From the NCBI GenBank assembly GCA_016204595.1, contig JACQKJ010000066.1, forward strand, positions 1-28,410: 28,410 bases of DNA. Reading direction: 5' to 3'. Shown in pieces: positions 13,616-20,895 of the stretch (within the stretch, counting starts at the first letter, position 1; the number at the start of each line of letters is the position of its first letter). A program made the translations under genes and the position numbers. The notes under the pieces are model-generated. The model was not told the origin of the DNA. It saw only the letters and a program-made list of their open reading frames with translations, and searched no databases. Source of the stretch: Candidatus Komeilibacteria bacterium (GTDB lineage Bacteria; Patescibacteriota; Patescibacteriia; UBA1558; 2-01-FULL-52-15).

Positions 13616-15910
13616 TTAGGTCAGGTTCGGGTCTTCATCCTCCTCATCCTCGGACGATGCATCGGGAACTTCGTTATGTGCATTGATCTCGGAGGCGGCA
13701 TCGTCGTGTGACGGCTCGCTGCTTTCGCTTTCAATGAATGTGCGATCGAACTCTTCTTTCGTCATCAGCACTTCCCGCGGTTTTGAACTGTTCTGCGGAC
13801 CGATAATGCCTCGCTCCTCCAGAATATCCAGCATGCGGGATGCCTTGGCAAATCCCATCCTGAGGCGGCTCTGCAACAGCGTTGCCGATGCGCGACCCGC
13901 CCTGATGACCGATTCCGCTGCCGCGATAACATCGCGCTCTTCGGTATCAGATTCAAATCCCCCGGAAACGCCGGTGTGGCTCTGACGGCGTTCCGTGACG
14001 GCCATTTCGTATTCCGGTTCCCCGTGTTTTTTGAGATAGTCGGTGACCGCCGTAATTTCGGTGTCGCTTATGAAAGCTCCCTGGATTCGTTTCGGTTTTG
14101 TAAGTTCCGCGCTGATGTAGAGCATGTCGCCGTTGCCGAGGAGCTTTTCCGCACCGGATGAATCAAGTATCGTGCGGGAATCGGTTGAAGACGCTACCGC
14201 GAATGCGATGCGGGAGGTGATATTCGCTTTGATGAGCCCGGTAATGACGTTCACTGACGGGCGCTGCGTGGCAAGCACCAAGTGGATCCCGACGGCTCGC
14301 GCCATCTGCGCCAGGCGAATGATCGCGCTCTCCACCTCTTTTGCCGCAACCATCATGAGGTCCGCGAGTTCGTCGATGATGATGACGATATAGGGAAGCT
14401 TTTCAACCAGCCGCGCTTCGTTGAATGCCTCGATGTTTTTCTTGCCTGAGGCGGACAGCAGTTTGTAGCGTTCATCCATCTGCTGCACGGTCCAGCGGAG
14501 TGCGTTGATGGTTTTTTCAATGTCGATGATGACCGGAGCTAAGAGGTGCGGGACACTGTCATATGAGGTGAGTTCCACCCGCTTCGGATCGACCAGAATG
14601 ATCTTGAGCAGATCGGGCGAATTTTGGTACAAAAGACTTATGAGCATACTGTTGATGCAGACGGATTTTCCGCTGCCGGTCGCTCCCGCGATCAGGAGAT
14701 GGGGCATTTTCCCGAGGTCGGCCATCATGACCTTACCCGATACGTCTTTGCCGAGAGCGACCATGAGGTTGGTGCGGCGGTTCGTGTATACCTGGCTTTG
14801 AAGAATCTCTTTGAGCTTCACGATGGATGCCGTCTGATTCGGCACTTCGATACCGACCAGGGATTTACCGGGTATCGGCGCTTCGATGCGTATGGGGTGG
14901 GCGGCAAGGGCCAAGGCCAGATCGTTCTGCAGCGCCGTGATCTGGTTCAGTTTCACGCCTTCGGTCGGCTTGAGGGTATATTGCGTGACGGTCGGCCCCA
15001 CATTCACCTCACCCATCGTCACCTCGATGCCGAAGTTTTTGAGCGTGGTCTCGATCTTTCGCATCGTGGCGTTGATGTCGCCGCTTGTCGGCACCGCGGC
15101 GTTTGCCGTCAGAAGATCTATTGGAATATCAATCTTCGGTTGGGGAAGCCGTTTTGACCGCTGCTGAAAGACGCCAACAGGGCGTCCAGTTGCGGATGAC
15201 GATCTTGATCCGGGCTCTGTATCCTCGGCAAGCCCCGCTTCAAGGGCGGTCTCTTCGTCGGATTCATCGGAAAGCTCGCTCGTTTTGAAATGCGCATTGT
15301 ATACCGGAGGCGCTTCAGCGCTTTTCGGACGACGTTCAGGCAAGGCCGCGCGCAGATGAAAGAGCAGCCGCTGGATTGCCATGAGCAAGCTCGAAAATGA
15401 GGTGTTCAAAAAAATGAACAAACCGATACAGAGCATGGCGACAAGGATCGAGAGCGCTCCCCAGAATTCAAAACCGCGATAGAGCGCAGTACCTACCGCG
15501 TAACCGACATAGCCGCCGCCGCTTCCTGCTGCTACGATATCAGAAATATCTTGGTCACGTACCAGGAGATGCAAGAGTCCGCTGTATCCGGCGACCGTCA
15601 AAAGGAGACCGATGTAGTTAACGAGCTTGATATCGTGCTGCGCCGGACGCAGCAAGAGATAGGAAAGCAGGAGCAGGACGATGGGAAACAGCCAATCGCC
15701 CCACCCGAACGCAAGCCCCAGGAATTTAAGCAGATAAACTCCGGCCGTACCTGTCGCCTGGAAGAATGAAAGCAACGTCAGAAAAGCAACGGTGAATAGG
15801 ATCACTATCGCGATGCCTCGTTTTGTTTCGGAGGCAAGTGTCCAGTGGCCCGTGGTCGAAAAGCTCCTCCCTTGGGCTATTTTTTGTCGGCGAGTATAAC
15901 GTTTGAGCAT
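13616..15910 (-). CDS. ftsK: DNA translocase FtsK/SpoIIIE (4TM type)
   Basis: N-terminal TM domain, PHLLIAGATGSGKS, IDELADLMM, LATQRPS and a gamma domain (ASATLLQSRLRMGFAKASR). Start re-assigned to the ATG at 15910 because a -10 box overlaps the ATG at 15937. Confidence 0.97.
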   Translation of the reverse strand: MLKRYTRRQKIAQGRSFSTTGHWTLASETKRGIAIVILFTVAFLTLLSFFQATGTAGVYLLKFLGLAFGWGDWLFPIVLLLLSYLLLRPAQHDIKLVNYIGLLLTVAGYSGLLHLLVRDQDISDIVAAGSGGGYVGYAVGTALYRGFEFWGALSILVAMLCIGLFIFLNTSFSSLLMAIQRLLFHLRAALPERRPKSAEAPPVYNAHFKTSELSDESDEETALEAGLAEDTEPGSRSSSATGRPVGVFQQRSKRLPQPKIDIPIDLLTANAAVPTSGDINATMRKIETTLKNFGIEVTMGEVNVGPTVTQYTLKPTEGVKLNQITALQNDLALALAAHPIRIEAPIPGKSLVGIEVPNQTASIVKLKEILQSQVYTNRRTNLMVALGKDVSGKVMMADLGKMPHLLIAGATGSGKSVCINSMLISLLYQNSPDLLKIILVDPKRVELTSYDSVPHLLAPVIIDIEKTINALRWTVQQMDERYKLLSASGKKNIEAFNEARLVEKLPYIVIIIDELADLMMVAAKEVESAIIRLAQMARAVGIHLVLATQRPSVNVITGLIKANITSRIAFAVASSTDSRTILDSSGAEKLLGNGDMLYISAELTKPKRIQGAFISDTEITAVTDYLKKHGEPEYEMAVTERRQSHTGVSGGFESDTEERDVIAAAESVIRAGRASATLLQSRLRMGFAKASRMLDILEERGIIGPQNSSKPREVLMTKEEFDRTFIESESSEPSHDDAASEINAHNEVPDASSEDEEDEDPNLT

Positions 15911-15923
15911 AGTGAATAGGGAT

Positions 15924-15932
15924 AGTGTAGCA
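15924..15932 (-). promoter_or_regulatory. extended -10 promoter (TGCTACACT) for ftsK-rodZ-recA
   Basis: TGnTACACT ends 13 nt before the ATG at 15910. Confidence 0.6.
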
Positions 15933-15996
15933 TACAATTGTGCTTATTTCTAGGCCTTTTTGAGCTAATAGGCAGCGCCCGGGCTTGATTATTATT

Positions 15997-16024
15997 TTGA
16001 CATTTCAAGGAATGCTGCTATTAT
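15997..16024 (+). promoter_or_regulatory. strong sigma70 promoter for the two-gene cassette
   Basis: TTGACA (15997-16002), 16 nt spacer, TATTAT (16019-16024), with an extended TG at 16016-16017. Confidence 0.65.
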
Positions 16025-16088
16025 ATTTGGTCAGTCGAAATCTTGAATTTTGCTGAACCTTTTGTTCATTCTAAGTGAGGTGGCGGAT

Positions 16089-16559
16089 ATGAAGGTCACG
16101 GACTCCGAGCTTCGACAAGCAAAGTGGTACCTCGCGAAACCAGTTTTGGTTGGTGCTTCAATAGCGGTCTTTGAGTGTATCCGTGACAAAGGCTACGATG
16201 TACGACGGGTCGAGCCGATTGTAACAAGCCAAGCTTCCAGGCATCGCTTCGACCTGTTTCTGCCTTTCTTGGACAAGGTGCTGCATGGCTACATGCCTGA
16301 AGACAGCGAGTTCGAGCAAAAGGTCTCATGGCATGTGTACATTTTGGTCGGTGTGATCCTTCATGAGGTCGGAGGGGTCTGGAACTTCCTGCAGTCGGAC
16401 AGCTGGCATGATCGCAATCTTACGGCCAAAGTCGCAGCGCAACTGTCGGAAGGTGGGTTGCCACAAAATTGGTTGTTGGATAAGACACTACGATATGTCC
16501 CGCTTGTCCAGGAAGCGATTCGGCAATTCGTGTCAGAAGCTCTTGAGCGACGTAGATAA
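16089..16559 (+). CDS. hypothetical protein (156 aa), no recognised family
   Basis: SD-like GAGGTG 6 nt before the ATG at 16089, downstream of a strong promoter. Globular, protein-like composition. The TTG start at 16050 is the alternative. Confidence 0.65.
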   Translation: MKVTDSELRQAKWYLAKPVLVGASIAVFECIRDKGYDVRRVEPIVTSQASRHRFDLFLPFLDKVLHGYMPEDSEFEQKVSWHVYILVGVILHEVGGVWNFLQSDSWHDRNLTAKVAAQLSEGGLPQNWLLDKTLRYVPLVQEAIRQFVSEALERRR

Positions 16560-16589
16560 TTTGTTAGTGGGTGATCTTTCAATAGCAAC

Positions 16590-16611
16590 GCCGGTTGTAT
16601 CCGGCCTTTTT
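16590..16611 (+). terminator. short hairpin plus U-tract between cassette genes
   Basis: GCCGG-ttgtat-CCGGC-C-TTTTT. Confidence 0.4.
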
Positions 16612-16626
16612 CCGGGGAGGATCCGT

Positions 16627-16935
16627 ATGCCTGCAATAGATAAGCAGTTGGCACGAGAGGCACACGTGGTGGCTTATCAGTTCAGACGGCTCTCGAGGTT
16701 GGTTCCTCGTCTACTCACGGCAGTGGTTGCTTCTCAAGAGAAGGCGACTCCAGCGACTAAGGACAAGCGCCGCAGTCCGCGGCTTTCACCGTCGGTTCGC
16801 CGTGCTCTCAAGCTGCAGGGCCAGTACATGGGCGGGATGCGGGGCATGTCCGTCAGAGGACGTGCCCGGATCAAGAAGATTCGCAGGCAGAGGGGCATCA
16901 GGGCTGCGATCGCTGCGATCAAGCGAGCGCGCTAA
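16627..16935 (+). CDS. small, highly basic hypothetical protein (102 aa), candidate nucleic-acid-binding protein
   Basis: SD GGGGAGG 6 nt before the ATG at 16627. 20 Arg + 8 Lys versus 4 acidic residues. C-terminal ALKLQGQYMG...R.MS.R.RARIKKIR...GIRAAIAAIKR. Confidence 0.75.
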   Translation: MPAIDKQLAREAHVVAYQFRRLSRLVPRLLTAVVASQEKATPATKDKRRSPRLSPSVRRALKLQGQYMGGMRGMSVRGRARIKKIRRQRGIRAAIAAIKRAR

Positions 16936-16950
16936 GTAGGGGGGTATAGA

Positions 16951-16997
16951 AAAACCGCCCGCTCACCGAGAGAAACTCGGATGGAGCGGGCGGTTTT
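16951..16997. terminator. bidirectional terminator (long interrupted hairpin) between cassette and rpoC
   Basis: AAAACCGCCCGCTC / GAGCGGGCGGTTTT (14 bp) enclosing CCGAG-agaaa-CTCGG, with A/T tracts on both sides. Confidence 0.8.
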
Positions 16998-17016
16998 CCA
17001 TTTGTATAAGGGAGCA

Positions 17017-20000
17017 TTATTCCTTAAACCCTGTCCCTGCCGGAATGAGACGTCCTATGATGACATTCTCCTTTAAGCCGCGGAGCTTGTCCCGCTTGCC
17101 GGTGATGGCCGCGTCAATAAGTACGCGGGCGGTTTCCTGGAAGGAAGCAGAGGCCAGAAATGAGTCTGATGCGAGCGAAGCCTTCGTGATACCCATGAGC
17201 AGGTACTCTCCGGTTGCTTTGGCGCCTTCGGTCGCATTGTTCGCTTCTTTGAATTGCGTATGCGTGACGATCTCGCCGGGCAGCAGTTCCGTGTCCCCTG
17301 CATCTTTCACGTAAATGCGCGAGAACATCTGGCGCGCGATAAGCTCGATGTGCTTGTCGTTCAGTTTCTGACCCTGCGATGAATAGATGTATTTGATTTC
17401 CCTGATGATGTATCGCTGCACGGCGAGCTTGCCCTGGAGACGATAGAGTTCGTGCAGGTCGATGGAGCCTTCGGTCAGCTGCTGCCCCGAGGTTACGAGT
17501 TCTCCGTTCTTTACCCAGAGATTGTATCCGGCGGGTATGATTACTTCCAGCATTTCATTTTTTTCACCGGTGAGCTGTACGGAGGTCTTGGTCACCTTCG
17601 CGGTGCCATTGTACGGAGCGCGTATTTCTTCAGAATCATTTTTTACCAGGATCAGATGGTTGCGCTGGACCGCTTCTCCGTTCTTCACGCTGAGCTTGTC
17701 ATGTTCCGCGCTGTATTCGTACGTCGCTGTCGACACTTCGCCGCTTTTGATTTTGAGAAGGCGGTTTTTATTCGTGCCGAGATTCTCATTTTCGACGATG
17801 ACTTGTCCGGCAATAGGCGCAATGATTGATTTCTTTTTCGGCGGTCGCGCTTCGAATAATTCCTCTACGCGCGGAAGACCCTGGGTGATGTCCCCGCCGG
17901 CAACGCCTCCGGTATGGAAGGTACGCATGGTGAGCTGGGTGCCGGGCTCGCCGATTGACTGTGCGCCAATGATGCCGACCGCGGTTCCTTTGGTCGTCAG
18001 TTGATTGTGCCCAAGTTCAAAACCATAGCATTTTTGGCAGATGCCTCTCACGGATGTGCAGGTGAGCACCGAACGGATCACAACGTTCTTCGGAGCCGCT
18101 TTGGTGATTTTTTCTCCCAGCTCGATGGTGATAAGCGTGTTCTTTTTGACGATAACCTTGCCTTTTGCGTCCGTTACGTCCGCAGCGAGGTAGCGTCCGA
18201 TAATGCGTCCGCCGATGGTTTCATTCATGTCCTCGGTTTCGGCGAGATTAATGCTCAATCCCTCGGCGTCTTTACAGTCCTCATCGATGATGATGAGATC
18301 CTGCGCAACGTCAATAAGGCGGCGGGTCAGGTAGCCGGCGTTGGCTGTCCTCAGAGCTGTATCGGAAAGTCCTTTGCGCGCTCCGTGAGTCGAAATGAAA
18401 TATTCGAGCACATCGAGGCCTTCCTGGAAACTTGCCTTGACCGGCAGCTCGATGATGTCGCCCGCAGGGCTTGTGACGAGCCCTTTCATTCCCATGATCT
18501 GAATCATCTGCGCCCAGGAACCTCGTGCTCCCGATTGAATGATGGTTGCGATGGAGTTCAGCGGGTCAAATTGTTTCTTGGATTCTTCGGTAATCCGATT
18601 CTTGATATCGGTCCAGGTCTCGATGACCTTGATGTATCGTTCGTGATCGGTCAGCCAGCCGTTGTTATATTGTTCCCGGATCTCATTCACCGTGTCCTCA
18701 CCTTCCTTGATCAGCGTGCCTTTGATGTCGAGTGTTGGAATGTCATCCATGCCCCATGAAAGACCGGAACGGGTGATATATTGGTAGGCAAGATCCTTAA
18801 TGCTGTCGAGGAATTGCACCGCTTCTTCCTTTGATTGGGACATGATCGACTCCGCGACGATCTGCTTGAGCGCAGCCTTATCGAGCTGCTTATTGATAAA
18901 ACCGCGTCCCTTCGGGAGAATTTTGCTGAAGATAATGCGTCCGACAGACGTTTCTTCCCGTTTTCCGTTGACGTTCACGAGGATCGGTTGCTGGAGAGGC
19001 AAATACCCGAGCTTATAGGCCAGTTCGGCCTCATCGAAGTTTGCATACAACTTCGGCCGCTCATTTTTTTTGACCGGTTTGAGCGAGGTGAGATAATATA
19101 CGCCCCAGACAATGTCGAGGACGGGGAGCGTGATCGGCTCTCCGGTCGCTGGTTTCAACAGATTGCGGTCGGCAGCCATAATTTCTTCCGCTTCTCGTTT
19201 CGCTTCATCGGTCAGGGGAAGATGCACAGCCATCTGGTCACCGTCGAAGTCAGCGTTGAACGCGGTGCAGACCAGGGGATGGAGCTGGATAGCTTTTCCT
19301 TCTATGAGTATCGGGTGGAATGCCTGAATGCCCAAGCGGTGCAGGGTCGGCGCGCGGTTCAGAAGAACCCGTGTTCCTTTCGTTATTTCATCCAAAATGT
19401 CCCACACTTCGATGTGGCCCTCGTCAATATAGCGGTTCGCGCTTCTGACATTGTGCACCAGGTCGCGCTCGATGAGTTTCGAAATGACGAACGGCCGATA
19501 TAACTCGAGAGCCATTTGTTTCGGCAAACCGCACTGGTCAAGTTTCAGATGCGGGCCCGCGACGATCACGGAACGCCCGGAATAATCCACGCGCTTGCCC
19601 AGCAGATTCTGACGGAAACGGCCCTGCTTTCCTTTCAGAAGATCCGCGATGCTCTTGAGCATGCGTTTTTGCCCGGTTGAAGCCGTTACTGTTTTGCCGT
19701 GGCGCGCGTTATTGTCGATGAGCGCGTCAACTGCTTCCTGCAACATGCGTTTTTCGTTGCGTTGGATGACCTCGGGAGCCTTCAGTTCTTTCAGGCGCTT
19801 GAGGCGGTTGTTCCGGTTGATGACGCGCCGGTAGAGATCGTTCAGATCGGAGGTTGCGAACCGTCCGCCGTCGAGCTGCACCATGGGCCGGAGGTCCGGA
19901 GGGATGACGGGCAGTACCGTCAGGATCATCCACTCAGGCTTGATCTTGTTGGTGATCAGGGTTTTCAGAAGCCGTGATCGCCGGATCAGCTTTTTCTTTT

Positions 20001-20895
20001 TTGAAGGGATGCACGTCAGTATTTCTTTATCAAGATCCCTGGTCATCTGTTTGAGGTCGGTGCGTGTCAGGAGATACCTGATGGCGTCAGCGCCGATACG
20101 CGCCTCGAACACATGACCATATTTGAGCGACAGGTCCTGATAGACATTCTCAGAAATGATTGCCTGTACCTGTAAGCTGCGAAGTTCTTTTTTGGCGGTG
20201 TCGGCAGCAGCGTCCAGATGCGAGAGTTTTTCAAGTTTTTGAGCGTTGAGCTGCATGACGAGCTCCGCAGCAGCGGTCTTGACCTTCTCGGCGTCTTTCC
20301 CCGCCTGCAGCTGCGCAGATTTCTTTCCCTGCGTCTCGCTGATCTTATGATCGAACTCGGCCTCGATCTGTTTTCGTTTCGATTTCAGCTCATCAGCGAC
20401 CTGCTGCAGCGTTTCCTGGCGTGCAGCTTCATCAACATCGGTCACGATAAAATTGGCGAAATAGATGACCTTTTCCAGATCCTGAACTGATAAGTCGAGT
20501 ACGAGGCCTATCTTTGACGGAATGCCGCGGAGAAACCAGATATGGGACACCGGCGTTGCCAGGTCGATATGGCCCATCCGTTCGCGGCGGACAATGGAGC
20601 GCGTTACCTCGACCCCGCATTTGTCGCAGATAATGCCTTTGTAGCGGATTTTTTTGTACTTGCCGCAATAGCATTCCCAATCTTTCGACGGTCCGAAGAT
20701 GCGCTCGCAAAACAAACCGTCGCGTTCCGGTTTCTGGGTACGGTAGTTGATGGTTTCAGGCGACAGTACCTCGCCGTGCGACCATTTATGGACGACCTCA
20801 GGCGATGCGAGCTTGAGTCGAATGCTGTCGAACTCGATCGTCTTCTGCATCTCGGTCGGCATGAACGTTGTTTTTGTCGATGATGGCGTTGACAT
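17017..20895 (-). CDS. rpoC: DNA-directed RNA polymerase subunit beta'
   Basis: Catalytic NADFDGD, Zn ribbon CYCGKYKKIRYKGIICDKCG, EPGTQLTMRTFHTGG, ENVIIGRLIPAGTG. Confidence 0.99.
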   Translation of the reverse strand: MSTPSSTKTTFMPTEMQKTIEFDSIRLKLASPEVVHKWSHGEVLSPETINYRTQKPERDGLFCERIFGPSKDWECYCGKYKKIRYKGIICDKCGVEVTRSIVRRERMGHIDLATPVSHIWFLRGIPSKIGLVLDLSVQDLEKVIYFANFIVTDVDEAARQETLQQVADELKSKRKQIEAEFDHKISETQGKKSAQLQAGKDAEKVKTAAAELVMQLNAQKLEKLSHLDAAADTAKKELRSLQVQAIISENVYQDLSLKYGHVFEARIGADAIRYLLTRTDLKQMTRDLDKEILTCIPSKKKKLIRRSRLLKTLITNKIKPEWMILTVLPVIPPDLRPMVQLDGGRFATSDLNDLYRRVINRNNRLKRLKELKAPEVIQRNEKRMLQEAVDALIDNNARHGKTVTASTGQKRMLKSIADLLKGKQGRFRQNLLGKRVDYSGRSVIVAGPHLKLDQCGLPKQMALELYRPFVISKLIERDLVHNVRSANRYIDEGHIEVWDILDEITKGTRVLLNRAPTLHRLGIQAFHPILIEGKAIQLHPLVCTAFNADFDGDQMAVHLPLTDEAKREAEEIMAADRNLLKPATGEPITLPVLDIVWGVYYLTSLKPVKKNERPKLYANFDEAELAYKLGYLPLQQPILVNVNGKREETSVGRIIFSKILPKGRGFINKQLDKAALKQIVAESIMSQSKEEAVQFLDSIKDLAYQYITRSGLSWGMDDIPTLDIKGTLIKEGEDTVNEIREQYNNGWLTDHERYIKVIETWTDIKNRITEESKKQFDPLNSIATIIQSGARGSWAQMIQIMGMKGLVTSPAGDIIELPVKASFQEGLDVLEYFISTHGARKGLSDTALRTANAGYLTRRLIDVAQDLIIIDEDCKDAEGLSINLAETEDMNETIGGRIIGRYLAADVTDAKGKVIVKKNTLITIELGEKITKAAPKNVVIRSVLTCTSVRGICQKCYGFELGHNQLTTKGTAVGIIGAQSIGEPGTQLTMRTFHTGGVAGGDITQGLPRVEELFEARPPKKKSIIAPIAGQVIVENENLGTNKNRLLKIKSGEVSTATYEYSAEHDKLSVKNGEAVQRNHLILVKNDSEEIRAPYNGTAKVTKTSVQLTGEKNEMLEVIIPAGYNLWVKNGELVTSGQQLTEGSIDLHELYRLQGKLAVQRYIIREIKYIYSSQGQKLNDKHIELIARQMFSRIYVKDAGDTELLPGEIVTHTQFKEANNATEGAKATGEYLLMGITKASLASDSFLASASFQETARVLIDAAITGKRDKLRGLKENVIIGRLIPAGTGFKE

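Follow-up and report, generated by a model that had tools for sequence, protein, structure and literature searches.

Accessory islets in intergenic hotspots, type II toxin-antitoxin modules, small basic proteins of the H-NS/Lsr2/MvaT type and DinB/YfiT-like four-helix-bundle metal-binding proteins are the described systems that come closest to the locus reported here, a two-gene cassette from a Candidatus Komeilibacteria bacterium. The window, by which we mean the whole stretch of 28,410 nucleotides (nt) that was analyzed (assembly GCA_016204595.1, contig JACQKJ010000066.1, C36 in our numbering), belongs to a 0.72-Mb genome that is 67% complete; the genomes of its relatives are all about 1 Mb, a size typical of the Candidate Phyla Radiation (CPR)/Patescibacteria. 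Between the core genes ftsK and rpoC of this window lies an islet of 1.08 kb with two open reading frames (ORFs), ORF1 (P0001) and ORF2 (P0002), both on the strand opposite to their flanks.

With accessory islets in hotspots this locus shares its core flanks, a spacer whose length and content vary between genera, restriction-modification or nuclease cargo in some relatives, and a promoter and terminator of its own. It differs from them in being tiny, with only two genes, in the absence of integrase, transposase, tRNA and direct repeats, and in cargo proteins that fall outside any described family. Like a type II toxin-antitoxin module it is a compact two-gene unit under one promoter with a small basic, possibly DNA-binding partner, but the pair is conserved nowhere else, contains no known toxin or antitoxin domain and has its small basic gene second, 67 nt away across a hairpin. 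ORF2 on its own recalls H-NS, Lsr2 and MvaT in being small and basic, with a predicted N-terminal oligomerization helix, a flexible basic linker and a C-terminal domain, in occurring as several paralogues per genome and in being horizontally transferable, while ORF1 weakly recalls the DinB/YfiT-like proteins in its size (about 150-170 amino acids, aa), its all-helical build and an invariant histidine.

Taken together, our results make it likely that the cassette consists of two unrelated, separately travelling accessory genes in a variable rpoC-ftsK slot and is not a conserved pair. The islet is genus-specific, acquired accessory DNA, and its genes are intact, each with an evolutionary history of its own. 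As a phenomenon this is ordinary, accessory genes occupying a variable slot flanked by core genes. It does show that even CPR genomes of about 1 Mb maintain such slots immediately downstream of rpoBC and take up foreign genes there, in this case most likely from Acidobacteriota, a major soil phylum. The value of the locus lies in the two families that it brings to light. That of ORF2 is a large, well conserved and unnamed family of small basic proteins of Acidobacteriota, and that of ORF1 is a very rare all-alpha family of ultra-small bacteria and archaea with a confident structural model that matches no known fold.

The rpoC-ftsK Slot in Relatives

Twenty-four relatives were searched with the C-terminus of rpoC, and the region downstream was inspected in each. 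In at least 20 of the 24, ftsK follows rpoC on the same strand; the adjacency of the two genes, which the original prediction had put forward for checking, extends across the order, and it is the spacer that varies. In G008, a genus of the same family, and in several more families of the order the spacer is as short as ~0.04-0.1 kb; the remaining spacers span 0.5-2.6 kb and hold cargo that differs by genus (Table 1). The cassette of the window is one more, unique filling of this insertion-tolerant slot.

The opposite orientation of the two ORFs relative to ftsK and rpoC, first read from the letters of the window, is upheld by the coordinates and by the Pfam calls of both flanks. No transposase, integrase or meaningful flanking direct repeat was found around the islet, in agreement with what had been claimed, and an Rfam scan of positions 15700-17200 gave nothing above noise. 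With regard to a defense context, the window's flanks are core genes, and the slot contains an NYN nuclease or an N6_Mtase/Eco57I fragment in two relatives.

Neither ORF was found in 40 relatives, and the family profiles of both had no match in 400 further genomes of the phylum (320 genera). These absences, the variable slot and the nesting of ORF2 among Acidobacteriota sequences (see below) lend good support to the horizontal acquisition that had been proposed from the sequence. The events are best reconstructed as follows. Two genes of separate origin have come to form a single opposite-strand unit within a slot between co-directional core genes, in the order promoter, ORF1, small hairpin, ORF2 and shared terminator, and would be transcribed as one unit from that promoter to that terminator. 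ORF2 most likely passed from Acidobacteriota into CPR bacteria with its own leader and Shine-Dalgarno (SD) site. ORF1 belongs to an all-alpha family that is very rare, with scattered members in ultra-small bacteria of groundwater and in at least one DPANN archaeon.

Table 1. Features of the islet and its borders (window positions), and cargo of the same slot in related genomes
Feature	Position or genome	Strand	Description
ftsK	13616-15937	-	Core gene; FtsK_SpoIIIE Pfam match, E = 5e-61; left border of the slot
Sigma-70-type promoter	15997-16024	+	TTGACA-16-TATTAT with extended TG; 11/12 positions match; in the divergent ftsK/ORF1 spacer
SD site of ORF1	16077-16082	+	GAGGTG, 6 nt before the ATG; read from the sequence
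ORF1 (P0001)	16089-16559	+	156 aa; all-alpha; its unnamed family is very rare
Small hairpin	16590-16611	+	GCCGG-6-CCGGC, then T-run; just 5' of the ORF2 SD; listed as terminator-like
SD site of ORF2	16614-16620	+	GGGGAGG, 6 nt before the ATG; read from the sequence
ORF2 (P0002)	16627-16935	+	102 aa; very basic helical protein
Bidirectional intrinsic terminator	16951-16997		Common to ORF2 (+) and rpoC (-); inverted repeat I1
rpoC	17017-20895	-	Pfam-confirmed core gene; right border of the slot
DUF6629 membrane protein	G004, G006, G011, G013		Spacer cargo
227-234-aa unknown protein	G002, G005, G010, G012		Spacer cargo
100-114-aa Cys-rich unknown protein	G003, G009		Spacer cargo
291-aa membrane protein	G001		Spacer cargo in the closest relative
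NYN nuclease	G018		Spacer cargo
SnoaL-like protein	G014		Spacer cargo
N6_Mtase/Eco57I fragment + unknown protein	G023		Spacer cargo

Distribution and Phylogeny of ORF2

The first search with ORF2 returned 9 relatives of near-equal length, and 25 loci of the family were found in species genomes, nearly all of them from Acidobacteriota (Vicinamibacteria, Polarisedimenticolia and Terriglobia). A similar picture emerged from the ESM Atlas, where the three clusters shown for ORF2 (scores of 0.94-0.96) are mostly Acidobacteriota and none of the 100 nearest clusters (at least 50 members each) carries a Pfam family; a scan of viral contigs for the ORF2 family found none. The homologues stand alone with promoters of their own, at 1-4 copies per Acidobacteriota genome (2-4 paralogues in two large genomes of Acidobacteriota type), and lie among metabolic and membrane genes.

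The closest relative of ORF2 (63-66% identity) is a hypothetical protein from another Candidatus Komeilibacteria genome (OGY92006.1, P0016), whose gene adjoins pyrimidine-biosynthesis genes and not rpoC-ftsK. DNA similarity between the window and that locus (L004/L006) begins ~60 nt upstream of ORF2 and takes in the hairpin stem and the SD site but not ORF1, which indicates that ORF2 travels as its own unit. The stem of the small hairpin is kept in the Komeilibacteria homologue and its loop is different; no RNA hairpin conserved upstream of every ORF2 homologue was found, this one being restricted to the CPR pair and absent across Acidobacteriota. In a maximum-likelihood tree, the window ORF2 groups with the Komeilibacteria copy in a clade with support of 100/99 on a long stem, and this clade is nested within one of 99/99 that is otherwise made up of Acidobacteriota. 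Most likely, and most parsimoniously, ORF2 moved from Acidobacteriota into CPR bacteria together with its own leader and SD site.

In one Acidobacteriota subgroup (L015, L016, L020, L021 and L025) the ORF2-family gene has conserved neighbors, namely a 300-440-aa unknown protein upstream and an LPG_synthase_TM protein downstream, and in two Pfam-called loci (L003 and L008) a PilZ-like protein comes next after LPG_synthase_TM. One source of family members, labeled "Patescibacteria group bacterium SMAG_U10265" (L018 and L025; G041), is a metagenome-assembled genome (MAG) of ~3.2 Mb; the synteny around its ORF2-family genes is that of Acidobacteriota MAGs, and its label is probably wrong.

Co-occurrence of ORF1 and ORF2

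Co-occurrence was assessed by six-frame hidden Markov model searches of all fetched loci, within 4-6 kb of ORF2-family genes. They turned up 33 loci with the ORF2 family and 5 with the ORF1 family, to which 2 of the latter were added by eye, and none was shared; the two genomes with 2-4 ORF2 paralogues likewise held no ORF1 relative. The original prediction had seen in the cassette a two-component module (toxin-antitoxin, anti-phage, or effector plus regulator) and had itself named homologues that never co-occur as the finding that would speak against it, and this is what was found. Neither protein had a match in Pfam, NCBIfam or PHROGs, PADLOC-DB 2.0 returned 0 families for either at E <= 10, and the profile and structure searches that had been suggested assigned no family or fold to either. 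On present evidence the view that ORF1 and ORF2 are a defense or toxin system, or any conserved functional pair, is not supported.

Several points nonetheless weigh against our interpretation and its parts. The sample of ORF1 is small (6 lineages), so that the statement that the families never co-occur rests mainly on the ORF2 side; the 67-nt spacing, the single strong promoter and the single strong terminator are as one would expect of a functional pair. The ORF2 tree is unrooted, its root being placed only at the midpoint, and a long stem carries the CPR clade, so that transfer in the stated direction is parsimonious and not proven. The structural model of ORF1 described below was built from 4 sequences, and the other four AlphaFold models reached a predicted local distance difference test score (pLDDT) of only 67-77. 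Expression, binding to DNA or RNA and oligomerization are predictions only.

The leading alternative, although we judge it improbable, is that ORF1 and ORF2 are a genuine two-component module that was recently assembled, with ORF2 as a DNA-binding regulator or a neutralizer of ORF1. Besides the shared promoter and terminator and the SD sites of both genes, the combination of a 156-aa protein with a small basic one fits the size pattern of such modules, relatives of ORF1 lie near a PemK/ribbon-helix-helix (RHH) pair, a DDE transposase and a minimal nucleotidyltransferase, and the slot in other genera carries a restriction-modification fragment and an NYN nuclease. These features are outweighed by the absence of the two families from each other's company elsewhere, by the lack of database matches, by the stand-alone character of the ORF2 homologues with their own promoters, and by a gene order that is not the usual one of type II modules, in which an antitoxin gene precedes the toxin gene and overlaps or adjoins it. 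Searches of the PDB showed no match of ORF1 to a known toxin fold. A structure-based prediction of an ORF1 + ORF2 complex scored 0.00 and gave no verdict, weighing neither for nor against binding.

Structure and Possible Function of ORF2

The model of ORF2 consists of a long, amphipathic N-terminal helix (residues 3-38), a basic linker of low confidence that would be disordered and flexible (39-54) and a compact three-helix C-terminal domain (55-101) with a pLDDT of ~95-97. Of the family alignment (A1), 31 columns are invariant, and most of them fall in the motif RRxPRL...ALKLQGxYxGxMRG...GI.AAI. The N-terminal helix resembles coiled coils, and PDB sequence profiles matched only designed coiled coils, in that helix; the C-terminal domain had no structural match above noise. 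Foldseek searches of PDB and AFDB, VIA-align wide and the ESM Atlas (shape and features) found no informative fold for the protein. Weak likenesses to Transposase_20 (helix-hairpin-helix type) and to phage GPA recurred and are leads only, which we did not accept.

This layout suggests that ORF2 may be an oligomerizing nucleic-acid-binding protein, resembling nucleoid-associated proteins or acting as a small regulator, an assignment that we regard as plausible but tentative. Membership of the H-NS/Lsr2/MvaT family was rejected, there being no Pfam hit and no such fold among the PDB/AFDB matches; the C-terminal part of ORF2 is an all-helical three-helix bundle of another fold, and its DNA binding is putative. 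We know of no characterized nucleoid-associated proteins in Acidobacteriota. It is possible, although we lean toward thinking it unlikely, that the ORF2 family represents an undescribed and widespread Acidobacteriota class of nucleoid-associated or global nucleic-acid-binding proteins with an H-NS-like layout and a different, all-helical DNA-binding domain, which was transferred into genome-reduced CPR bacteria and came to stand under a consensus promoter beside the RNA polymerase genes; a bolder version would add that the rare CPR/DPANN family of ORF1 is a new fold.

It is still less probable than a recently assembled module that ORF2 is a small basic ribosome-associated protein, such as a divergent accessory ribosomal protein of bS20-like or bS21-like type. 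The idea arises from the AFDB cluster A0A1G2BSX8, which is 64% identical to ORF2 (the same protein as OGY92006.1, P0016) and was automatically named "30S ribosomal protein S20"; a very basic, helical protein of this size would also fit, and the strong SD of ORF2 stands out in a genome poor in such sites, as is the case for some autoregulated ribosomal-protein genes. The same protein is, however, hypothetical or uncharacterized in NCBI and UniRef, PF01649 (Ribosomal_S20p) had no hit at E <= 1 in ORF2 or in 10 members of its family, and hhalign of the ORF2 family against the genome's own bS20 gave a probability of 0.1%. That canonical bS20 is already present in the genome (G000:C79:16302-16550, 53.5 bits), and the ORF2 family, which was not found in 440 other genomes of the phylum and reaches 2-4 copies in a single Acidobacteriota genome, does not have the distribution of a core ribosomal protein. 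The entries in NCBI and UniRef, the missing PF01649 hit, the hhalign result and the separate bS20 gene led us to reject "S20" as a name for the cluster.

Family and Structure of ORF1

ORF1 belongs to a family that is far harder to find. Its sequence cluster has a single member from a single contig, and a word-index search of 5.8 billion proteins produced no relatives. When 1.8 billion representatives were scanned exhaustively with HMMER, only three true relatives with 27-36% identity came to light (a fourth hit was discarded as low-complexity noise), a profile search gave no members beyond those of the HMMER scan, a metagenome scan contributed one more lineage, and a scan of viral contigs found none. 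In total 6 lineages of the family are known, at 25-36% identity, from CPR bacteria and a DPANN archaeon. Its members beyond the window, namely P0012, P0013, P0015 and two more loci from metagenomes, derive from groundwater contigs and from a Pacearchaeota archaeon.

The neighborhoods of these relatives differ from one to the next. The gene of the Pacearchaeota (DPANN) archaeon adjoins the PemK/RHH pair, that on a groundwater bacterial contig adjoins the DDE transposase, and another is divergent from the minimal nucleotidyltransferase gene. One relative of 154 aa (L068:4878-5342, in the region L068:4343-8558) is located between grpE and dnaK on an AT-rich metagenome contig, with dnaJ downstream, and overlaps grpE and dnaK by 8 nt each. 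Such an insertion into a chaperone operon is unusual.

The best AlphaFold model of ORF1 (pLDDT 90.5, predicted template modeling score 0.89) is all-alpha with seven helices, and the five-member alignment (A4) has the invariant residues W81, Y84, G88, I90, H92, W128, D131 and E150. PDB sequence profiles gave no match, Foldseek against PDB and AFDB remained at E > 0.7 throughout with no informative fold, and none came from VIA-align wide or from the ESM Atlas (shape and features). The nearest ESM Atlas shapes are DinB-like, with template modeling (TM) scores of 0.38-0.39 over ~100 residues at a root-mean-square deviation of ~5 Å. Placement in the DinB superfamily was rejected, as there is no DinB Pfam hit, one invariant His (H92) takes the place of a His triad and the TM score is <0.4; nor was DinB among the top PDB matches. 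A small accessory protein that binds metal or a ligand, perhaps through the invariant His, Asp and Glu residues, would be our best guess for ORF1, and a tie to protein homeostasis might be drawn, weakly, from the member found within a grpE-dnaK-dnaJ operon; we consider this reading doubtful.

Expression Signals and Composition

The promoter of the cassette stands 65 nt before the ATG of ORF1 and is the sole sigma-70-like site in positions 15700-17200. At a lenient threshold the scan gave 1 site, and shuffled sequences averaged 1.0; the count alone is not above chance, and it is the quality of the match and the placement before the ATG that carry weight. The promoter with its extended TG, claimed from the sequence alone, stands. 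A second promoter for ORF2, seen by eye as GATAAT at 16555-16560, was rejected, as its -35 is poor and the scan contained none. The long bidirectional terminator that had been described was likewise confirmed: its two arms (16951-16964 and 16984-16997) pair perfectly over 14 bp around an inner hairpin and are flanked by an A-run and a T-run, and its free energy of -38.4 kcal/mol corresponds to z = -4.7 relative to shuffled sequences.

With respect to translation signals, canonical SD sites at a spacing of 6 nt precede both ORFs, as the original prediction had stated, and its remark that the core genes lack them holds at the predicted start of every one of the 17 remaining genes in the window. 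The further description of these signals as foreign-looking is correct in that they are locally unusual and overstated in that tuf and ribosomal-protein genes carry SD sites as well and the codon usage of the two ORFs is ordinary. Both ORFs fall in the 18th-30th percentile of the genome for codon usage, with ordinary guanine plus cytosine (GC) content at third codon positions, and both score better than same-strand shifted frames. The sole outlier in composition is the overall GC of ORF2 (60.8%, the 99th percentile), whose product has a high content of Arg, Ala and Gly. Least probable of all, to the point of being very unlikely, is that one or both ORFs are non-functional, decaying remnants of transferred DNA, for although both are unique to this genome among its kin and ORF1 has a cluster of its own, neither frame is broken or shorter than its homologues, every family-invariant column is kept, the promoter, SD sites and terminator are intact, and the codon usage falls within the range of this genome as described above.

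The SD of ORF2 is normal for its family: of the Acidobacteriota homologues shown, most carry GAGG or GGAGG at a distance of 6-9 nt from the start, and a TGnTATAGT -10 box ~60 nt upstream is present in several. A literature search on the use of SD sites in Patescibacteria produced nothing relevant, and the anti-SD tail is unreadable, the 16S rRNA being absent from the assembly.

A direct repeat of 19 nt with 79% identity lies at 16568-16586, just 5' of the ORF2 hairpin, and at 16147-16165, inside ORF1 (TGGTTGGTGCTTCAATAGC and TGGGTGATCTTTCAATAGC, respectively); it is probably a chance match.

Across the genome, SD sites of at least 5 nt precede 4.9% of first starts vs. 4.6% of internal control codons, and in a lenient scan such sites were found at 93 of the 709 ORFs, with tuf and ribosomal-protein genes among them, which shows that the genome is SD-poor overall and yet uses SD sites for a minority of its genes. 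Clear sites of the AAGGAG type occur in this minority, for example at tuf (C63:738-1922) and at C63:4471-5313.

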